Positions 4,755 through 17,961 of a stretch of 34,842 nt of DNA are shown piece after piece. The translations under genes were made by a program, and so were the position numbers. Position 1 is the stretch's first letter, and every line of letters starts with the position of its first letter. The stretch lies in NCBI GenBank assembly GCA_020058565.1, contig JAGVDT010000036.1, positions 1 to 34,842 on the forward strand. Direction: 5' to 3'. The notes beneath the pieces were generated by a model. That model was not told where the DNA came from and made no database searches. It was given only the letters and a program-made list of their open reading frames with translations. Source of the stretch: Minisyncoccota bacterium. GTDB taxonomy: Bacteria > Patescibacteriota > Minisyncoccia > Phycocordibacterales > UBA2100.

Positions 4755-5111
4755 GCTTGAAATTTTCTGCCAGCTTCGCGTTAAGATTTCGAGTTTTAGC
4801 TCGGTTCAGGAATTGTTCGGGTGACCGATTTAACTAATATTTTACTAGACATTTCGGACATTTTATTTTCGCGATTCTGCAAAATCTGTGGATATGTATG
4901 CATATTTTTTTCCTTACGATATAGAGACGATGGATCGCGATATATTTCGCAAACTAAAGCAATTTTATGCGGGGAACCACACCACCGACAATATTTATCA
5001 AAATATTCTTATCCCAACTTGGTTTCCTGACTAATTCTCGGCTGCCCGAGCATCGATAAATATAGGTATATTGCTGATTGAGGCTGATTCAGACTCTGCT
5101 TTGCGGCCCGA

Positions 5112-11472: not shown

Positions 11473-14061
11473 CTAGCTCTCATCGACGATGCGCCACTCT
11501 CCCGAGGCCAGGAGATCATCGGTCTTTTTAAATTTCACTTCGCGCACCTCTTTGCCGTTGGTTATTTTTACTTTGTCGTTGCGACCGTATTCTTTTTTCG
11601 GCCCCACGTGTCCGGTAGCGGTGATAGTCCGGGCGGCAGTCTGGACGGAGCGTTCCTGCCTGGAGCTCGGAGCACCTTCTGAAGTGATGTTGGGGATGCT
11701 TTGCGCCACATGCTGGGTATACGTATCTTCCATCGTATGAAAGAGCCGGAGGCCTTCTTTTTTGTATTCTACGAGCGGATCTCGCTGGCCGTATGCGCGC
11801 AAATTTACCGATGAGCGCAAATATTCCATAGCCTCGAGATGCTCCACCCAAAGGTAATCGATCGTTTGGAGCAAGAACCTCCGCACTATAGGGTAAAATG
11901 CATCACCAAGCTCTTGTTTTTTCATGCGGATTGCGTCGGGGAAATCTGACTTTCCGGAAAAGATGCGCTGTAATTCCGTGTCGATCGCTTCGTTGCCTTC
12001 TGACAATAGCGCTCGACGGCGCTGATAGACACTTTTGCGCTGAATGTTGAGTACGTCGTCGTATGCGAGCACGTGCTTACGAGCATCGAAATTCATTTCT
12101 TCAATGCGCGTCTGCGCCTTTTCAAGCGATCGGGTGATCATGGAGTTATAGATTGGTTCGTCTTCAGGAATACCAAAAGTGCCCATTACGCGCTTAATAG
12201 CGTCGGATGCAAATATGCGCATCAAAGAATCCTCCAGCGAAACAAAAAATTGCGTTTCTCCCGGATCTCCTTGTCGGCCTGCGCGGCCTCGCAGCTGATT
12301 ATCAATGCGACGGGCTTCATGCCGCTCTGTGCCAAGTACAAAGAGACCGCTGAGCTTTTTAATTTCTTCGTATGCACCTTCCGGCGCGGGGTTTCCTCCG
12401 AGTTTGATGTCCACACCGCGGCCTGCCATGTTGGTAGCGATAGTGACTCCCCCTTTCCTGCCCGCCTGCGCAATAATCTCGCCTTCGCGTTCGTGATTTT
12501 TCGCGTTTAATATTTCGTGAGGAATGCCCTCTTGGCGAAAATACGCAGACAAGACCTCGTTCCTTTCGACTGATGCCGTTCCGATGAGTACCGGCTGGCC
12601 CTTTTCGTGCATTTCTTTGACTCGCCTGGCGATGGCTTTCATCTTCCCCGCTTCAGTTTGGAATATCAGGTCTTCATGGTCTTTGCGTTCCGTTTTTTTG
12701 TTGGTCGGTACGACCACCGTATTGAGTCCGTAGACTTTGTAGAATTCTTCGGAACTCGTGACTGCCGTGCCGGTCATGCCTGCGAGCTTGTCGTATAAGC
12801 GAAAATAATTTTGGAACGTAATCGACGCGAAAGTGCGGCTTTCTTGCTGTACCGAGACGCCTTCTTTGGCCTCGATAGCCTGATGCAGTCCGTCGGACCA
12901 ACGGCGGCCCGGCTGAAGACGACCGGTGAATTCGTCTACTATCACAATCTGTCCGTCCCGCACGACGTATTCTTTGTCGCGATTATAGAGCGCTTTCGCG
13001 CGTACCGCTGTTTCCAGATGATGCACAAACTTAATACCGGCATCAGTGTATATGTTGTCTATCCCAAGAGCCCTTTCGGCCTTTTCAATACCAGAATCAG
13101 TTAGTTCTATCTGTTTTTTCTTTTCGTCAACCGCGTAGTCATCGTCCCGCTTGAGGGATCCCGCTATGCCGGCGAACTTTGCATACAAGGACTCGGCTTC
13201 GGCCATCGGCGCGGATATTATCAGAGGTGTGCGCGCTTCATCGATAAGTATGGAGTCTATTTCGTCGACAATCGCAAAATGATACCCTCCGTCTTTCTGA
13301 AGACGCTGACGGAGCTTTTCCGGTTCGTACTCAAGATTGTCACGCAGATAATCAAAGCCGTATTCATTGTTGGTGCCATAGGTGATGTCGGCCGCATATG
13401 CTTCACGCCGCGTACAAGGACGCAGATACTCGTGCACTACGTGAAAGCTCCCCGTCTCATCACGTTTCGTATCTAGTACATCTTTTGCCTCGGCCTGGTT
13501 ATTGTTTCTTGTTTCTTGTGCTTTGTTTTGTGTTTCTTGGTTATTGATATTTGCCACTCCGTGGCGAGGGTCGTATATAAAAGATGCTTCGTGATTTATC
13601 ACGCTTGTCGACATTCCAAGCGCATGATAGACCTGCCCCATCCATACCGCATCGCGCCTTGAAAGATAGTCATTTACAGTGACCACGTGCACGCCTTTCT
13701 CTGTGAGGGCATTGAGGTATGCAGGAAGCGTCGCCACCAAAGTCTTGCCTTCGCCGGTGCGCATTTCAGCGATGTCGCCGTTGTGGAGAATCATGCCTCC
13801 AATCAGCTGCACGTCAAAGTGTCTCTGCCCGAGCGTACGTCGAGATGCCTCGCGTACCGCGGCAAAAGCCTCTGGAGCCAGGTCGTCGAGACTTTCGCCT
13901 TCAGACAGGCGCTTTTTGAATTCGGCTGTTTTTGCCTTGAGAGCCTCGTCGGAAAGCGCTGTAAACTGCGGCTCAAGTGCGTTTACCTTGCCCACAATAG
14001 GGGCAGCGCGGTTGTAGGCCGCAGCGTTCTCATCGCCAAATAATGCCTTCCAAAATGTCAT
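11473..14061 (-). CDS. secA: Preprotein translocase ATPase SecA
   Basis: MRTGEGKTLVATLPAYLNAL (Walker A), VVTVNDYLSRRD, AYAADITYGTNNEYGFDYLRDN, AIVDEIDSILIDEARTPLIIS, LAGMTGTA, TIATNMAGRGVDIKLGG. Confidence 0.97.
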   Translation of the reverse strand: MTFWKALFGDENAAAYNRAAPIVGKVNALEPQFTALSDEALKAKTAEFKKRLSEGESLDDLAPEAFAAVREASRRTLGQRHFDVQLIGGMILHNGDIAEMRTGEGKTLVATLPAYLNALTEKGVHVVTVNDYLSRRDAVWMGQVYHALGMSTSVINHEASFIYDPRHGVANINNQETQNKAQETRNNNQAEAKDVLDTKRDETGSFHVVHEYLRPCTRREAYAADITYGTNNEYGFDYLRDNLEYEPEKLRQRLQKDGGYHFAIVDEIDSILIDEARTPLIISAPMAEAESLYAKFAGIAGSLKRDDDYAVDEKKKQIELTDSGIEKAERALGIDNIYTDAGIKFVHHLETAVRAKALYNRDKEYVVRDGQIVIVDEFTGRLQPGRRWSDGLHQAIEAKEGVSVQQESRTFASITFQNYFRLYDKLAGMTGTAVTSSEEFYKVYGLNTVVVPTNKKTERKDHEDLIFQTEAGKMKAIARRVKEMHEKGQPVLIGTASVERNEVLSAYFRQEGIPHEILNAKNHEREGEIIAQAGRKGGVTIATNMAGRGVDIKLGGNPAPEGAYEEIKKLSGLFVLGTERHEARRIDNQLRGRAGRQGDPGETQFFVSLEDSLMRIFASDAIKRVMGTFGIPEDEPIYNSMITRSLEKAQTRIEEMNFDARKHVLAYDDVLNIQRKSVYQRRRALLSEGNEAIDTELQRIFSGKSDFPDAIRMKKQELGDAFYPIVRRFLLQTIDYLWVEHLEAMEYLRSSVNLRAYGQRDPLVEYKKEGLRLFHTMEDTYTQHVAQSIPNITSEGAPSSRQERSVQTAARTITATGHVGPKKEYGRNDKVKITNGKEVREVKFKKTDDLLASGEWRIVDES

Positions 14062-14210: not shown

Positions 14211-14786
14211 CTACTGGCGTGCCGGCAGCTTAAAATGCTTCCTGATCGGCGCATCCATTTCGAGTTCATCTACGATCATATAGCGCATATCTTTTCCTAT
14301 TTTTAGATCGCTTTTCAGCAAGATAATAAGCTCTTCGCATGGGTAAGGATACATCCACACACTTTTCTGTAATTGGTAAAAGCCACACGACCGGAGGGTT
14401 TGCCTGACTTTGTCACGGATAGTCTTTCGGTATTCGGGAATATCAAAAATCATAAGCCGCCATCGCCCATCCCAACGCTTTGGGCGTTTACTCAGCGTTT
14501 CCTTGGCTTGCAAGAGATAGAGTTTGCGCTTGCCTTTTTCAGTAAGCTGCGCGACAGGTCCCTTATAGAAGATCAGGCCTTCTTTTTCGAGCCGTTTGCG
14601 GGTGCGAGCGATGTTGCCGGCATCATATCGGGACAGAGTTAGCCCAAGCTTTCGCAGAACCACCGGCATATTAGGTGCCGCAATCGCAAGCCCCACCAGG
14701 CCGGCTGCTGCCACGCCCATTAGTATGGATTTCCTTAGGTTCCTTTTTTGCGCACGTTTTCGACCCCGCTCTTCGATTGACCCCAT
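14211..14786 (-). CDS. PaaX-family-like regulator (N-terminal TM, winged-helix-like region, Cas2/PaaX_C-like C-terminal domain)
   Basis: WRLMIFDIPEYRKTIRDKVRQTLRSCGFYQLQKSVWMYPYPCEE matches the (V/I)FDIPE....R......L...GF..LQ.SVW.(Y)P pattern of PaaX C-terminal domains. The N-terminal hydrophobic helix is ILMGVAAAGLVGLAIAAP. Confidence 0.65.
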   Translation of the reverse strand: MGSIEERGRKRAQKRNLRKSILMGVAAAGLVGLAIAAPNMPVVLRKLGLTLSRYDAGNIARTRKRLEKEGLIFYKGPVAQLTEKGKRKLYLLQAKETLSKRPKRWDGRWRLMIFDIPEYRKTIRDKVRQTLRSCGFYQLQKSVWMYPYPCEELIILLKSDLKIGKDMRYMIVDELEMDAPIRKHFKLPARQ

Positions 14787-14821
14787 ATGCTATTTTTACG
14801 CGACCGCGCATTTATAGCATA
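14786..14821. promoter_or_regulatory. 36-nt palindromic element, copy 2 (abuts the PaaX-like start codon)
   Basis: tatgctatttttacgcgaccgcgcatttatagcata, with arms tatgctat/atagcata. It overlaps the T of the ATG (rc of 14784-14786). Confidence 0.6.
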
Positions 14822-14936
14822 GGAATATTTTTCCGCCATGCGTTTACTCTGCGAGAGTAGCAAAATATTTTTTCAGCCTATCAAGACGATCCTGCAGTTA
14901 ATGCAACAGATGACTTCGCAACGTAGGCCATAAGAC

Positions 14937-14961
14937 AAACCCGCGGCGAAGCCGCGGGTTT
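14937..14961 (-). terminator. Rho-independent terminator-like hairpin
   Basis: The minus strand reads aaacccgcggc-uuc-gccgcggguuu followed by gucuuau. The 11-bp GC-rich stem runs into a U-rich tract. On the plus strand the tail is gcgcaag, a poor terminator. Confidence 0.7.
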
Positions 14962-14974
14962 GCGCAAGAAACTT

Positions 14975-14994
14975 TTGAGTGCGTACGCACTCAA
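14975..14994 (-). other. Perfect 9-bp hairpin immediately after the polybasic sORF stop
   Basis: ttgagtgcg-ta-cgcactcaa. It lies 3 nt downstream of the sORF stop on the minus strand. Confidence 0.6.
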
Positions 14995-14997
14995 GCC

Positions 14998-15042
14998 TTA
15001 TCGGCGCTTCTTTGCTTTCTTTGCCTTCTTTTTCTTTGCCAT
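14998..15042 (-). CDS. Speculative 14-codon polybasic sORF (MAKKKKAKKAKKRR)
   Basis: rc of 14998-15042 is atggcaaagaaaaagaaggcaaagaaagcaaagaagcgccgataa. No Shine-Dalgarno sequence is visible. It is followed by two hairpins. Confidence 0.2.
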   Translation of the reverse strand: MAKKKKAKKAKKRR

Positions 15043-15163
15043 ATCGATGATGGGTTTTTTGTATCTAATTCGACCCGCCTCGCTCTCCCAGAAGAGTCTG
15101 ACGATGCGTTATTCCTAGATTATTGCATTGCAATATGAAAAATGTGCGAACAAAAAAAATTTG

Positions 15164-15172
15164 TGTGGATAA
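15164..15172 (-). promoter_or_regulatory. Perfect consensus DnaA box (TTATCCACA on the minus strand)
   Basis: The plus strand reads tgtggataa, inside the AT-rich island. It is the only perfect copy I found here. A 2-mismatch box, ttatccatc, lies at 15457-15465. Confidence 0.35.
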
Positions 15173-15174
15173 CT

Positions 15175-15212
15175 GAATCATAAAAATATTTTAAAAAAGA
15201 TTTTTATGATTC
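15175..15212. repeat. Perfect 13-bp AT-rich inverted repeat with a 12-nt spacer
   Basis: gaatcataaaaat (15175-15187), attttaaaaaag, atttttatgattc (15200-15212). Confidence 0.7.
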
Positions 15213-15292
15213 GGAAATCAAAAGTTAAAATTTGAAATTCAAGATGACAACTCAAAATTACATTGCATCGCGAATTCATCATCGAATAAATA

Positions 15293-15327
15293 TATTGAAA
15301 GGCGCAATGCGGAGGACGGGTGCGAGC
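15293..15327. repeat. 35-nt perfect direct repeat, copy 1
   Basis: tattgaaaggcgcaatgcggaggacgggtgcgagc, identical to 15473-15507 (period 180 nt). Confidence 0.9.
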
Positions 15328-15472
15328 ACGCAAAGAGCTCCGCTTTAAGAACCGCACGGTTCTTAATTATCTCCTTCACGGGGAAACTACAGTTTCCCCG
15401 ACCCCCTTCGGACTTTGGAGCTCGCCAGAGCGTTTGGCTTGAGCGGGTAAGCCGATTTTATCCATCGTTTTG
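15293..15472 (-). ncRNA. Candidate structured ncRNA, unit A (diverged tandem paralogue of unit B)
   Basis: Two stretches are homologous to unit B. cacggggaaactacagt (15377-15393) matches cacggtaaaactgcagt (15608-15624). actttggagctcgccagagcgtttggc matches actttcacgagagccagagattgctggc. The hairpins are 15379-15400 (10 bp) and 15347-15364 (8 bp), with gagctcc/ggagctc pairing 15345-15351 to 15416-15422. It ends in the same 35-nt module followed by uuucaauauauuuauu. Confidence 0.35.
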
Positions 15473-15507
15473 TATTGAAAGGCGCAATGCGGAGGACGGG
15501 TGCGAGC
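15473..15507. repeat. 35-nt perfect direct repeat, copy 2
   Basis: tattgaaaggcgcaatgcggaggacgggtgcgagc. The flanks diverge immediately on both sides (a/g at -1, a/t at +1). Confidence 0.9.
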
Positions 15508-15686
15508 TCCAAAGTGAAAGTTATGTGAGTGCCGCCGCCCTCCGCGCTGCGCCCTTCGTAGTCTTGACGAAGAAGAACTGCATCCTTCCAAAGAAATGAT
15601 ACCACCCCACGGTAAAACTGCAGTACCCCGCGAAGCGGGGTACTTACAGTACTTTCACGAGAGCCAGAGATTGCTGGCACTCACAT
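15473..15686 (-). ncRNA. Candidate structured ncRNA, unit B (promoter-proximal); family unknown
   Basis: An 11-bp closing helix, auguGAGUGCC (15686-15676) with GGCACUCacau (15533-15523), encloses about 140 nt. That interior contains hairpins 15617-15650 (core 9 bp, guaccccgc-uuc-gcgggguac) and 15554-15572 (cuucgu/acgaag). A 17-bp stem pairs 15553-15535 with 15499-15481 inside the 35-nt module. One pair in that stem is G-U on the minus strand but A-C on the plus strand. The stem is followed by uuucaaua. Confidence 0.45.
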
Positions 15687-15691
15687 TGAGG

Positions 15692-15719
15692 ATTATACCC
15701 TAGCGACGTCGCGCAGCAA
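15692..15719 (-). promoter_or_regulatory. Sigma70-like promoter TTGCTG-16 nt-TATAAT reading into the structured units
   Basis: The minus strand reads ttgctg (rc of 15714-15719), cgcgacgtcgctaggg, tataat (rc of 15692-15697). It starts directly after the stop of the upstream gene (15721). The predicted start, near 15684-15686, coincides with the 5' end of the 11-bp closing helix. Confidence 0.5.
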
Positions 15720-15720
15720 C

Positions 15721-17961
15721 CTAAGGCTTGGGTGCGGTTCCGTCTTGCACTTGTTGGATATATTTTTCCGCTTCGGCCGTCACCGATGGCACATTTTGTA
15801 TTGCGGTGCGCAGGGTGCTGATGGATTTCACAGTATCTCCGGCGGCATAGTAAGCGGCGGCCAAGGTGAAATAAGCCTCAGAATTCCACGGCTCCGCGGC
15901 AACTTTCGCTTCCCACAGCTTAGCAATCTTGTGGTACTGCCCGCGCGCCCCGTATGCGGCCGCTATGCGCTGATCGGCAGCTCTGCCTGTCGGTATAATG
16001 GGAGCAAGGACTTCGTCTGCAAGCTGGTCGGACCCTGCCCGAATCAAAAGCGCCGCGTAGTACAGACGCGCCTCGGCATTTTCCGGCTCAACCTCATACG
16101 CCGACCTGAAAGCGTCAAGCGCTCCCTGAGCGTCGTTGCGAGCGATGGCATTCTGCCCCACTTGGTAAAAGATCGATTGCTTGGTGGGCGAAAGCTCCAG
16201 CGCGCGATCAAAGGACTTGCGCGCGTTTTCCAGATCGCCGTATGCCTGGTACACAAGCCCGGTGAAAAGCGGGAAGCGCGCATCAAGCGGAGAAATCTTT
16301 TCTTGCTTTGTCATTTCCGCCACAGAAACTTGCAGGAACTTCTGTTTGATGTCATTTGAAATGCTGGAACCGGCTATCTGCGCTGCGGCCTGCGCCAGCT
16401 GCTCGCGGACTTCCTGCGTGCCGATAGAATTCACGCTGGCCGCGGCCTGAAAATCCGAGAGGACCTTTTCATAATTGCCCTGCGAGCCGGACATCAGAGC
16501 ACTGATGAGTGTAAGGTTTTGGGAAATCCCGGGCGCATTTGCCCACCACCCTATACTTGCCACCAGTATCGCGCACCCCACCATCGAAAATCCGAGTGCT
16601 TCTTTTGGCAGGGGCGCGGCCTCTACTACACGCGGCGTTTTATCGGCTTCGCTTTCACGCCAGATCACATAGCCCAGCACAGTCGCAAAAAGAATGTAGC
16701 TCGTCACGTTGTCGAATACGAACAGGTTGTGGAAGAAATACCCCGCAAAGAGGCCGATAAGTATTGCGCTTTCGTCGTGCCTGAAAGCTCTGCTGCGCCA
16801 GAGACTATAGAGCGCTGTCGCAAATATCGAGAGGTACGCCGCGAGCCCCAGCATTCCGCCTGCGACGAGCCAGTCGAAAATGCTGTTATGCACTCGATCG
16901 AACCACGGTTCGGCGCTATGCATGCCCGGATCGTAATATTTGTCGAAAACAATCGCGTAGTTCTCCTGGCCCCAGCCGAGTATTGGACGCTCTTTAAAGC
17001 CCTGCCAAGCCATGCCCCAGTTCATGTAGCGAGACTGCACCGTCGGATCGTTTATGGAAATGTTGGCCAGACGCACCAGAAAACCGATCTTGGCGACTTC
17101 CGGAGAACTGCGAAGCGTATAAAGAATGCCGGCGATGACGATCAAAACGCCAATAGCCGCGAAAACGTAGATTCTAATGCGCTTGGCATTTTCCGCGCGA
17201 AACACGTACACAAGCCCCGCGAGTGTCGCACCGCCGATAAGCCCCAGAGTCGTGCCGCGAGTACCGGTAAACAAGAGAACGATAATATCGAAAACTATTA
17301 CGGACCCGTAGGTTATCGACATCCACATTCGCTTGCCGGGTTTGCGCTCACGCCATTCCTGGACCCAAAGCATTGCGGCAAGGAATATATGGAAAAGATC
17401 GTACGCAGCGAGATAAATAGCGTTGCCAAACGTGGCGTCTATACGGCCGGCGAGCCCATTGGCTCCGCCCTGCCCCACCGCGCTCCATCCGAAAAGCTGG
17501 CGCATCCCCATAAAGCCGACGCCCACCGATACCGCGAGCGAGAGCTGGAAGAGCCTGCGCCACAGTTTCTCGGTATTCAAAACAGAGACCACTACGACCA
17601 GGTACGTGAAAAGGTGGGCGATGGTGACCCATCCATCCATACGCTCAAAGTTGCTCCAGAAGCTCTTGAACGGATTAACCCCCTGCGCATCGGCGATTGC
17701 CATTATGAGCACAAATACGGCAAATGCCGCCAGTATCCAATTTTTGCGCGGCCGGTACTGCGGCAGTATCAGTGCGAGCGCTAGCCACGCGGCAGCCATT
17801 ATTTCGACAACGATGCGAAAGTAGAAATTTTTGCCTGTGATGAAGGGGAAAAACATCCCGTCCGCGATGTAAAAAACCACGAAAGGAAGCGAGAAGGCTC
17901 CGCCGATCGCTGTCCAGCGCAGGATTTGTTCGAGAGCCCGCATGAGGACGCATTGTAGCAC
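15721..17961 (-). CDS. O-antigen ligase/polymerase-like (Wzy_C-type) polytopic membrane protein with a C-terminal TPR domain
   Basis: About 10-12 TM segments with a large loop after FTGTRGTTLGLIGGATLAGL. The C-terminal ~250 aa are TPR-like (YQAYGDLENARKSFDRALELSP, ARNDAQGALDAFRSAYEVEPENAEA, YYAAGDTVKSISTLRTAIQ). Confidence 0.7.
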   Translation of the reverse strand: MLQCVLMRALEQILRWTAIGGAFSLPFVVFYIADGMFFPFITGKNFYFRIVVEIMAAAWLALALILPQYRPRKNWILAAFAVFVLIMAIADAQGVNPFKSFWSNFERMDGWVTIAHLFTYLVVVVSVLNTEKLWRRLFQLSLAVSVGVGFMGMRQLFGWSAVGQGGANGLAGRIDATFGNAIYLAAYDLFHIFLAAMLWVQEWRERKPGKRMWMSITYGSVIVFDIIVLLFTGTRGTTLGLIGGATLAGLVYVFRAENAKRIRIYVFAAIGVLIVIAGILYTLRSSPEVAKIGFLVRLANISINDPTVQSRYMNWGMAWQGFKERPILGWGQENYAIVFDKYYDPGMHSAEPWFDRVHNSIFDWLVAGGMLGLAAYLSIFATALYSLWRSRAFRHDESAILIGLFAGYFFHNLFVFDNVTSYILFATVLGYVIWRESEADKTPRVVEAAPLPKEALGFSMVGCAILVASIGWWANAPGISQNLTLISALMSGSQGNYEKVLSDFQAAASVNSIGTQEVREQLAQAAAQIAGSSISNDIKQKFLQVSVAEMTKQEKISPLDARFPLFTGLVYQAYGDLENARKSFDRALELSPTKQSIFYQVGQNAIARNDAQGALDAFRSAYEVEPENAEARLYYAALLIRAGSDQLADEVLAPIIPTGRAADQRIAAAYGARGQYHKIAKLWEAKVAAEPWNSEAYFTLAAAYYAAGDTVKSISTLRTAIQNVPSVTAEAEKYIQQVQDGTAPKP

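Follow-up and report, generated by a model that had tools for sequence, protein, structure and literature searches.

The locus described here occupies positions 15293-15719 of a contig of a Minisyncoccota bacterium (JAGVDT010000036.1, assembly GCA_020058565.1); the window that we analysed is this contig in its entirety (34,842 nt). Read on the minus strand, a gene for a Wzy_C and TPR protein (15721-17961) is followed by the locus, by a gene for a small protein with a PaaX_M/Cas2-like domain (14211-14786) and by the gene for SecA (11473-14061). An earlier reading made from the letters alone (the sequence-only reading) had taken the locus for an old tandem pair of structured minus-strand RNA units that share an identical 35-nt module and fold in a switch-like manner. 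We found that it is a cluster of three separate minus-strand small-RNA genes, sRNA-1, RNA-B and unit A, and not a single transcript. Comparison with relatives demonstrates three conserved units, promoter- and terminator-like elements that are conserved in position, selection at the RNA level on the minus strand and, between two of the independently encoded RNAs, complementarity that co-evolves.

Three small-RNA genes and their conservation

Relatives of the locus were collected by two scans. With a 20-nt core as query, 185,579 species genomes yielded 55 loci, 41 of which are true (one locus per assembly, in Kaiserbacteria, Paceibacterota or Minisyncoccia-type assemblies), the remaining 14 being chance matches in GC-rich genomes; a metagenome scan with only the two inner stem arms of RNA-B as query added at least 86 further true loci, and viral contigs scanned for the element gave no match. 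Class-wide counts given below (approximately 116 to 125 loci) combine the genome and metagenome loci among the matches listed. A single global alignment of the 560-nt flanks was unusable, arrangements differing between genomes, and per-unit alignments were used instead: A1 for RNA-B (41 sequences), A2 for sRNA-1 and A4 for unit A (15 sequences). A covariance model of sRNA-1, R1, served to scan the loci, and covariation was judged against 500 shuffles each for the RNA-B stem, the sRNA-1 terminator and helix b:b' between these two RNAs.

The cluster is conserved in more than 100 relatives, ultra-small bacteria of the Candidate Phyla Radiation (CPR)/Paceibacteria; RNA-B and sRNA-1 occur together, once per locus, at about 120 loci, and the RNA genes take up approximately 400 to 900 nt. 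At all 72 loci with both flanks on the contig, the Wzy/TPR gene and secA flank the element. The PaaX_M/Cas2-like domain protein was found at only 4 loci; an exact-sequence look-up of this neighbouring protein returned no record, and its homologues, reached by similarity search instead, come from Patescibacteria, Paceibacterota and Parcubacteria. The orientation of the cluster between its neighbours varies. When the first two syntenic loci were compared, a block of about 400 nt was found flipped in one of them (L001) relative to the same flanking genes, with a TTGCAT-17-TATACT promoter travelling with the inverted block; RNA-B has the orientation of secA in 62 loci and the opposite one in 28 (n = 90), and is opposite to a nearby micro-protein gene, described below, in 25 of 82.

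As predicted from its sequence, sRNA-1 is an independently transcribed, intergenic small RNA with its own promoter and a covarying intrinsic terminator. The promoter (15692-15719, minus strand), as read from the sequence, consists of a -35 hexamer TTGCTG (15719-15714), a 16-nt spacer and a -10 hexamer TATAAT (15697-15692); a consensus promoter scan missed this site, the -35 hexamer agreeing at only 3 of 6 positions. In about 35 homologues TTGCnn-N17-TAnnnT is found 6-7 nt before GTGAG and moves with the sRNA-1 gene on either strand. According to alignment A2 and model R1, the RNA itself is about 74 nt long (15613-15686, minus strand) and comprises a 5' seed 'a', GUGAGUGCC (15684-15676), hairpin 1 (15678-15663), a seed 'b', GUGAAAGU (15658-15651), and a terminator hairpin (15649-15618) with a U run at 15617-15614. 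Its relatives, about 75-90 nt long, are laid out likewise, with promoter, GUGAGUGCC, variable hairpin, xGAAAGUC and covarying terminator, and conservation is limited to two short stretches, GUGAGUGCC at the 5' end and GAAAGUC just 5' of the terminator. RNAalifold gave no consensus for hairpin 1, whose length varies. In the terminator both sides are changed in 10 of 13 pairs, and none of the shuffles reached its covariation score.

One copy of sRNA-1 was recognized by model R1 in 79 of the 86 metagenome loci holding RNA-B, and in nearly all genome loci. Among 116 loci it lies upstream of RNA-B on the same strand in 85, on the opposite strand in 30 and downstream on the same strand in one, at distances of 11 to 2774 nt, and in L021 a 423-aa open reading frame (ORF; 359-1630) is inserted between the two. 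Because strand and position vary and an ORF can intervene, sRNA-1 has to be regarded as a separate gene.

RNA-B (approximately 15589-15473, minus strand), a hairpin RNA of roughly 100 nt and the conserved hub of the cluster, is preceded by an extended -10-like element, TGGTATCAT (15596-15604, minus strand), with a -35 hexamer that is weak in this genome. At the homologous position, TTGnnn-N13-16-TGn-TAnnnT is present in 68 of 102 distinct upstream regions, compared with 0.9% of shuffles, and ends 18-30 nt ahead of the inner stem. The window fails this strict pattern and keeps the extended -10 alone; read-through from sRNA-1 into RNA-B is possible in the window genome. A leader with two small hairpins was predicted by folding (15557-15589, minus strand; one of them is CUUCGU..ACGAAG, 15572-15554), and an equivalent insertion is found in some lineages only. 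The core hairpin that follows (15478-15556, minus strand; alignment A1) consists of a 5' arm (15556-15535), a 35-nt loop (15534-15500) and a 3' arm (15499-15478), with three sites in the loop: a', GGCACUCAC (15533-15525), b', ACUUUCAC (15521-15514), and c, ACUUUGGAGCUCGC (15515-15502). A U run usually trails the stem.

In alignment A1, 94.5% of the cells of the 22-bp stem are paired and nine pairs are changed on both sides, which none of the shuffles matched; covariation is seen in the outer 11 pairs, and neither the inner 11 nor the loop varies. One invariant G-U pair, along with frequent G-U pairs at other positions, would read A-C or C-A on the other strand, and RNA-B is therefore placed on the minus strand of the window. 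Folding of the region, in contrast, is equally strong on both strands (z ~ -7.7 against shuffles), so that folding energy alone is not informative on the strand. The loop is nearly invariant across approximately 125 loci, and altogether about 60 nt of RNA-B are invariant among them, with flanking proteins just 40-78% identical. A protein-coding reading of the core was rejected, all three codon positions being invariant and indels not being multiples of three.

Unit A (15293-15426, extending to about 15430; minus strand, alignment A4) is an accessory paralogue, separated from RNA-B by a spacer with a hairpin (GGCUU-N8-AAGCC, 15436-15453, minus strand) that is not conserved in relatives. It begins with a 5' arm, GCGAGCUCCAAAGU (15425-15412), continues with hairpins H2 (15399-15380) and H3 (15366-15345), and ends with a small hairpin together with the 3' strand of the closing stem P1 (15345-15321) and the second copy of the 35-mer (15327-15293). 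P1, H2 and H3 are supported by the 15 aligned sequences, with a few compensatory changes. Unit A is probably co-transcribed with RNA-B by read-through. A second unit 3' of RNA-B on the same strand exists at approximately 21-32 loci among about 116, or in roughly one lineage in four, and those ending in a copy of the RNA-B 3' arm lie 128-166 nt downstream of RNA-B. Several architectures occur, that of the window having a closing stem and two conserved hairpins. Variants include a GC-rich second unit downstream of RNA-B (type 'A2', at loci among L011, L026, L054, L100 and L159), one with its own CACUCACAU site (L030), one that lacks the 3' module and ends in a terminator (L116), a locus with two additional units (L119) and an sRNA-1-like unit in which GCGAGCUCCAAAG is combined with GGAAAGUC (L122, of the pair L122/L169); all of these, and that of L069, have arms complementary to parts of RNA-B. 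Separately, plus-strand positions 15609-15625 and 15377-15393 (cacggtaaaactgcagt and cacggggaaactacagt) are alike: read on the minus strand, the sRNA-1 terminator tail agrees with H2 of unit A at 19 of 23 nt. This likeness is seen only where the terminator stem reads GGGGUACUGCAG (the window, L001 and L027) and may be chance or a trace of recombination.

The 35-mer, TATTGAAAGGCGCAATGCGGAGGACGGGTGCGAGC, has two exact plus-strand copies, 15293-15327 and 15473-15507, 180 nt apart; no further copy was found in the window with up to three mismatches allowed, and 100 shuffles gave none by chance. The copy at 15507-15473 spans the last part of the RNA-B loop, its 3' arm and the next 5 nt. The variable outer 11 nt of the module pair with the covarying 5' arm of RNA-B, and between A and B they are identical at 9.7 of 11 positions within a genome and at 6.9 of 11 between genomes (permutation p < 0.0002). 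The exact 35-mer reflects concerted evolution of A and B within the genome. In the window the two copies stay identical for 5 nt after the stem has ended, for which gene conversion or duplication, in either case recent, is the simplest cause, and selection for complementarity to the RNA-B 5' arm may contribute.

Much of the sequence-only reading stands in the light of these comparisons. Its two exact copies of the 35-mer, its hairpins and its 11-nt complementarity (15523-15533 with 15676-15686) are all present in the sequence; its promoter, its long stem with a G-U pair and its hairpins and U-rich tails recur in more than 100 relatives; and covariation and G-U pairs bear out a real, unannotated, highly structured minus-strand non-coding RNA locus. 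Conservation and covariation in relatives, by which it had proposed to check the locus, were found, and a generic dispersed repeat, which it had named as refuting, is not what is seen with one locus per genome. Its division of the locus has to be redrawn. The two 35-mer copies do not mark units of about 200 nt of one RNA, and what it called unit B merges sRNA-1 with RNA-B, two genes whose strands differ in 30 of 116 loci. The loose homology it saw between the flanks is mostly not real, its examples having set unit A against the hairpin and terminator of sRNA-1, which are not mutually conserved elsewhere; true similarity between A and B is confined to the 3' module. Nor is unit A half of a universal old tandem duplication, being a lineage-restricted accessory.

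Probable pairing between the RNAs

The two conserved stretches of sRNA-1 are complementary to the adjacent sites a' and b' in the RNA-B loop. Among 59 distinct cognate pairs, pairing in the 7-bp core of helix b:b' (GAAAGUC:GACUUUC) exceeds 90%, compared with 37-49% in slid registers, and the covariation score of this helix was reached by none of the shuffles. Compensatory changes have arisen independently in separate lineages, as G-C to U-A (UAAAGUC:GACUUUA, L037), as three changed positions (ACGAAAAUC:GAUUUUCGU, L019 and L141), as U-A to C-G (CG:CG, L074 and L153) and as an added G-C pair (GG:CC, L036), and every RNA-B variant with CU faces A in sRNA-1. In helix a:a', the 'closing helix' of the sequence-only reading, 9 nt are complementary (-20.6 kcal/mol for the window), and this match is conserved with wobble-compatible changes only; a contact between sRNA-1 and RNA-B through this helix is likely, not proven. 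The two helices are in the same order on both RNAs and are not nested. sRNA-1 thus has its own promoter and terminator and, at b:b', a seed with compensatory changes, as expected of a trans-encoded base-pairing small RNA (sRNA), and complements of the sRNA-1 seeds, of the RNA-B loop and of the module, when sought in the window, are present only inside the locus itself. The 5' arm of unit A is a perfect 14-nt complement of site c (-27.1 kcal/mol, compared with -21.2 kcal/mol for its own P1).

Neighbouring micro-protein gene and other elements

Further along the minus strand lies a micro-ORF of 14 aa, MAKKKKAKKAKKRR (14998-15042), with a leader at approximately 15043-15118, a -10 element TGCAATAAT at 15119-15127 and no obvious Shine-Dalgarno sequence. 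A Lys/Ala-rich ORF of 12-32 aa ending in KKRR, KKRL or KKHR is present at 86 of 120 related loci; it varies at synonymous third positions (AAA/AAG) and by in-frame indels, and has the orientation of secA in 67 of 69 loci. Its leader contains a covarying hairpin (ACGCAUC...GAUGCG) followed by an invariant GGGUCGA and has no Rfam match. In L002 a 110-aa ORF (139-471) is inserted between unit A and the micro-ORF promoter.

About 40 nt upstream of the micro-ORF -10 element lies a perfect DnaA box, TTATCCACA (minus strand, 15164-15172), kept at this position in most relatives. The box sits in an AT-rich stretch; 15168-15219 has 26% GC and a 25-nt inverted repeat at 84%. An origin of replication was rejected, there being one perfect box (15164-15172) and a GC skew that falls steadily and is unreversed at 15.2 kb, and nearly all large ORFs on either side of the locus (approximately 5.2-30.9 kb) are read from the minus strand. 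The single box and the lack of a skew switch make a promoter under DnaA control a likelier reading than an origin.

A palindrome, ATGCTAT-N3-TGCGCGGTCGCG-N5-ATAGCAT, adjoins the start codon of the PaaX_M/Cas2-like gene (14787-14820, minus strand) and looks like this regulator's own operator; it is also found twice in L001 (approximately 4757-4790 and 4895-4930) and once in L002 (approximately 838-871). Two perfect palindromic hairpins 3' of the micro-ORF stop codon, CAAACCCGCGGC-gaa-GCCGCGGGTTTG (14936-14962) and TTGAGTGCGT/ACGCACTCAA (14975-14994), are probably terminators that part the micro-ORF from the PaaX_M gene.

Possible function and meaning of the locus

Most probably RNA-B is a hub on which partner RNAs dock, the whole working either as a regulator/decoy circuit or as a particle of several RNAs. 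The most likely function, to which we give a probability of roughly one half, is a regulator/decoy circuit. In such a circuit sRNA-1 would dock on the RNA-B loop via two short helices, forming a three-way junction with the sRNA-1 terminator stem; unit A, where present, would compete for the complex or join it through site c and the 5' arm of RNA-B; and RNA-B, with or without A, would sequester sRNA-1. As is required of a sponge or decoy, RNA-B has sites complementary to the seeds, a' and b', in its invariant loop. A candidate target of sRNA-1 is the lysine-rich micro-protein gene, the leader of which often contains CACUCA, complementary to the sRNA-1 5' end. This lead, on which the circuit also rests, is an enrichment: 35% of 69 distinct micro-protein leaders match the 5' end of sRNA-1 over 6 nt or more, compared with 3% of shuffles.

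Several points weigh against this reading. About 60 nt of RNA-B do not vary throughout the class, a pattern more usual in housekeeping RNAs that bind protein than in decoys, and site c is invariant even in loci where no A-like partner was found, which means that the model misses a partner. Helix a:a' has no compensatory double changes (a' never varies) and a C-A mismatch in 9 loci, and its 5' nucleotides compete with pairing inside hairpin 1 of sRNA-1. The 5-nt overrun of the 35-mer identity points to recent gene conversion, not to selection alone. The enrichment of matches in the micro-protein leaders is uncorrected for relatedness of the sequences, and the leader in the window itself lacks CACUCA. 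Finally, the RNA ends and co-transcription are predictions.

Among known systems, two kinds resemble the proposed circuit. As in the sibling sRNAs OmrA/OmrB, PrrF1/PrrF2 and Qrr1-5, there are adjacent paralogous units with a shared module, one block being identical and the rest diverged, and they evolve in concert inside the genome. In contrast to these siblings, the block shared here belongs to a long stem, of which it forms the 3' arm, and is not a free seed, and unit A, which exists in about a quarter of lineages, also has an arm complementary to its sibling's loop; no sequence or Rfam relation connects these sRNAs with the RNAs of the locus. In GcvB-SroC, the ChiX-chbBC spacer, RybB/RyhB-3'ETS-leuZ and the homologous decoys GlmY/GlmZ, as in RNA-B, sites complement the seeds of an independently transcribed sRNA, a pairing that is backed here by compensatory changes. 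Most known sponges arise as by-products of mRNAs or tRNA precursors and show poor conservation, whereas RNA-B is a dedicated gene and the most conserved partner, with three adjacent docking sites and class-wide invariance; titration by it is putative.

As the main, if tentative, alternative, RNA-B, sRNA-1 and sometimes unit A could be trans-assembled pieces of a constitutive multi-subunit ribonucleoprotein (RNP), maybe including the lysine-rich micro-protein. The rRNA-like invariance of about 60 nt of RNA-B in approximately 125 loci would fit such a particle, as would an sRNA-1 conserved only at its contacts with RNA-B, strict co-occurrence with one locus per genome, the micro-protein gene at 86 of 120 loci and an invariant site c without a known partner. 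However, no protein partner was identified, no similarity to known RNP RNAs was seen, and the linkage of the micro-protein may be mere conservation of gene order, its gene keeping the orientation of secA while the RNA cluster flips. The likeness to crRNA:tracrRNA, U4/U6 and two-piece transfer-messenger RNA (tmRNA) lies in two transcripts joined by short conserved helices beside a stem-loop and encoded side by side, but here the helices are not nested, no effector protein gene is associated and there is no homology. That RNA-B, sRNA-1 and the variable A-type units form a hitherto undescribed, class-wide Paceibacteria RNP machine, assembled in trans and possibly containing the micro-protein, with a function unrelated to classical sRNA regulation is conceivable, if doubtful.

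The sequence-only reading had seen in the crossing of its long stem and closing helix an intramolecular switch or pseudoknot with the logic of a riboswitch or attenuator. One minus-strand RNA of about 400 nt with mutually exclusive helices, acting in cis on a downstream gene, would agree with the co-oriented and closely spaced units of the window, with short U runs at the terminators and a weak RNA-B -35 that make read-through plausible here, and with the crossing complementarities, which do exist. As in riboswitches and attenuators, there are long GC-rich stems followed by U runs, and alternative pairings are possible on paper. The contacts, however, join two RNAs. A competing terminator and antiterminator in one transcript was not found, the strands belonging to separate genes that are opposite in 30 of 116 loci; secA points the other way from RNA-B in 28 of 90 loci, the micro-protein gene does so in 25 of 82, and L001 has the cluster inverted. 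Since the orientation of the cluster to secA and other flanking genes flips between genomes, leaving no fixed downstream gene, the logic of a riboswitch or attenuator is contradicted, and with no riboswitch model or aptamer family matching and no conserved junction resembling a ligand pocket found, we consider this explanation very improbable.

It is just as improbable that the locus encodes a highly diverged or split RNase P RNA, signal recognition particle (SRP) RNA, tmRNA or 6S RNA that Rfam overlooks, in spite of the housekeeping-level conservation and of trans-pairing pieces that recall two-piece tmRNA. At gathering score, Rfam 15 gave no match in the whole window, in agreement with the sequence-only reading, which had matched the units to none of the common families it considered, and one tRNA and nothing else in 16 homologous loci; at E <= 10, positions 14850-15800 gave noise only (E >= 0.64, 10-21 bits), with no RNase P, SRP, tmRNA or 6S match on either strand. 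ARAGORN found neither tRNA nor tmRNA in the window. Of the signature motifs of these RNAs, P4/CR-I/CR-V, the GGAA/AGCA of SRP domain IV and a T-arm with CCA are absent. Motif comparisons likewise led us to reject RNase P (P4/CR-I), SRP domain IV, 5S rRNA, tmRNA with the micro-ORF as tag, the hammerhead core, the T-box UGGN and domain V of group II introns (GAAAGUCGC), each of which has no more than a short word in common with the locus and misses its other defining elements. CPR RNase P RNAs are indeed diverged and fall below Rfam thresholds, yet they are detectable with RF00010 at lower score, and this model recovered RNase P RNA, at reduced score, in all CPR genomes of the study concerned (PMC8172020).

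An element acting at the DNA level (a repeat or miniature inverted-repeat transposable element (MITE), an inversion or recombination site, a CRISPR-like mini-array or, by virtue of the DnaA box, part of an origin) would account for the two orientations of the cluster between the same flanking genes, for direct and inverted repeats of 14-35 nt and for a perfect DnaA box and a 26%-GC stretch 120-190 nt away, but is hardly credible in view of the compensatory changes and single-strand G-U pairs, which speak for selection on RNA, of the conserved promoters and terminators, and of a single DnaA box with no switch in GC skew or gene orientation at 15.2 kb. A MITE or dispersed repeat was rejected on the two adjacent copies in the window, the one locus per genome in the 41 species-representative assemblies and the absence of matches in viral contigs, and a CRISPR array on two repeats only, a conserved, structured 145-nt 'spacer' and no cas genes.

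A search of the available literature found no description of these RNAs. Base-pairing sRNAs, sibling sRNAs and decoys are of a familiar kind; what sets this locus apart is a dedicated hub RNA with three docking sites, class-wide invariance and modular partners, and there is a real chance that the RNAs of this locus are categorically new. Patescibacteria/CPR account for a large part of bacterial diversity, their tiny genomes leave little space for DNA that is not essential, and to our knowledge almost nothing is known about their non-coding RNA biology. Here they present an RNA gene whose core is conserved to the level of rRNA segments, and comparative evidence for a specific RNA-RNA complex of two independently transcribed bacterial RNAs. 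The locus supplies ready covariance models, testable helices b:b' and a:a' and a candidate target gene upstream of secA, and if it encodes a housekeeping particle rather than a regulatory pair, this would be a new class of bacterial RNP.

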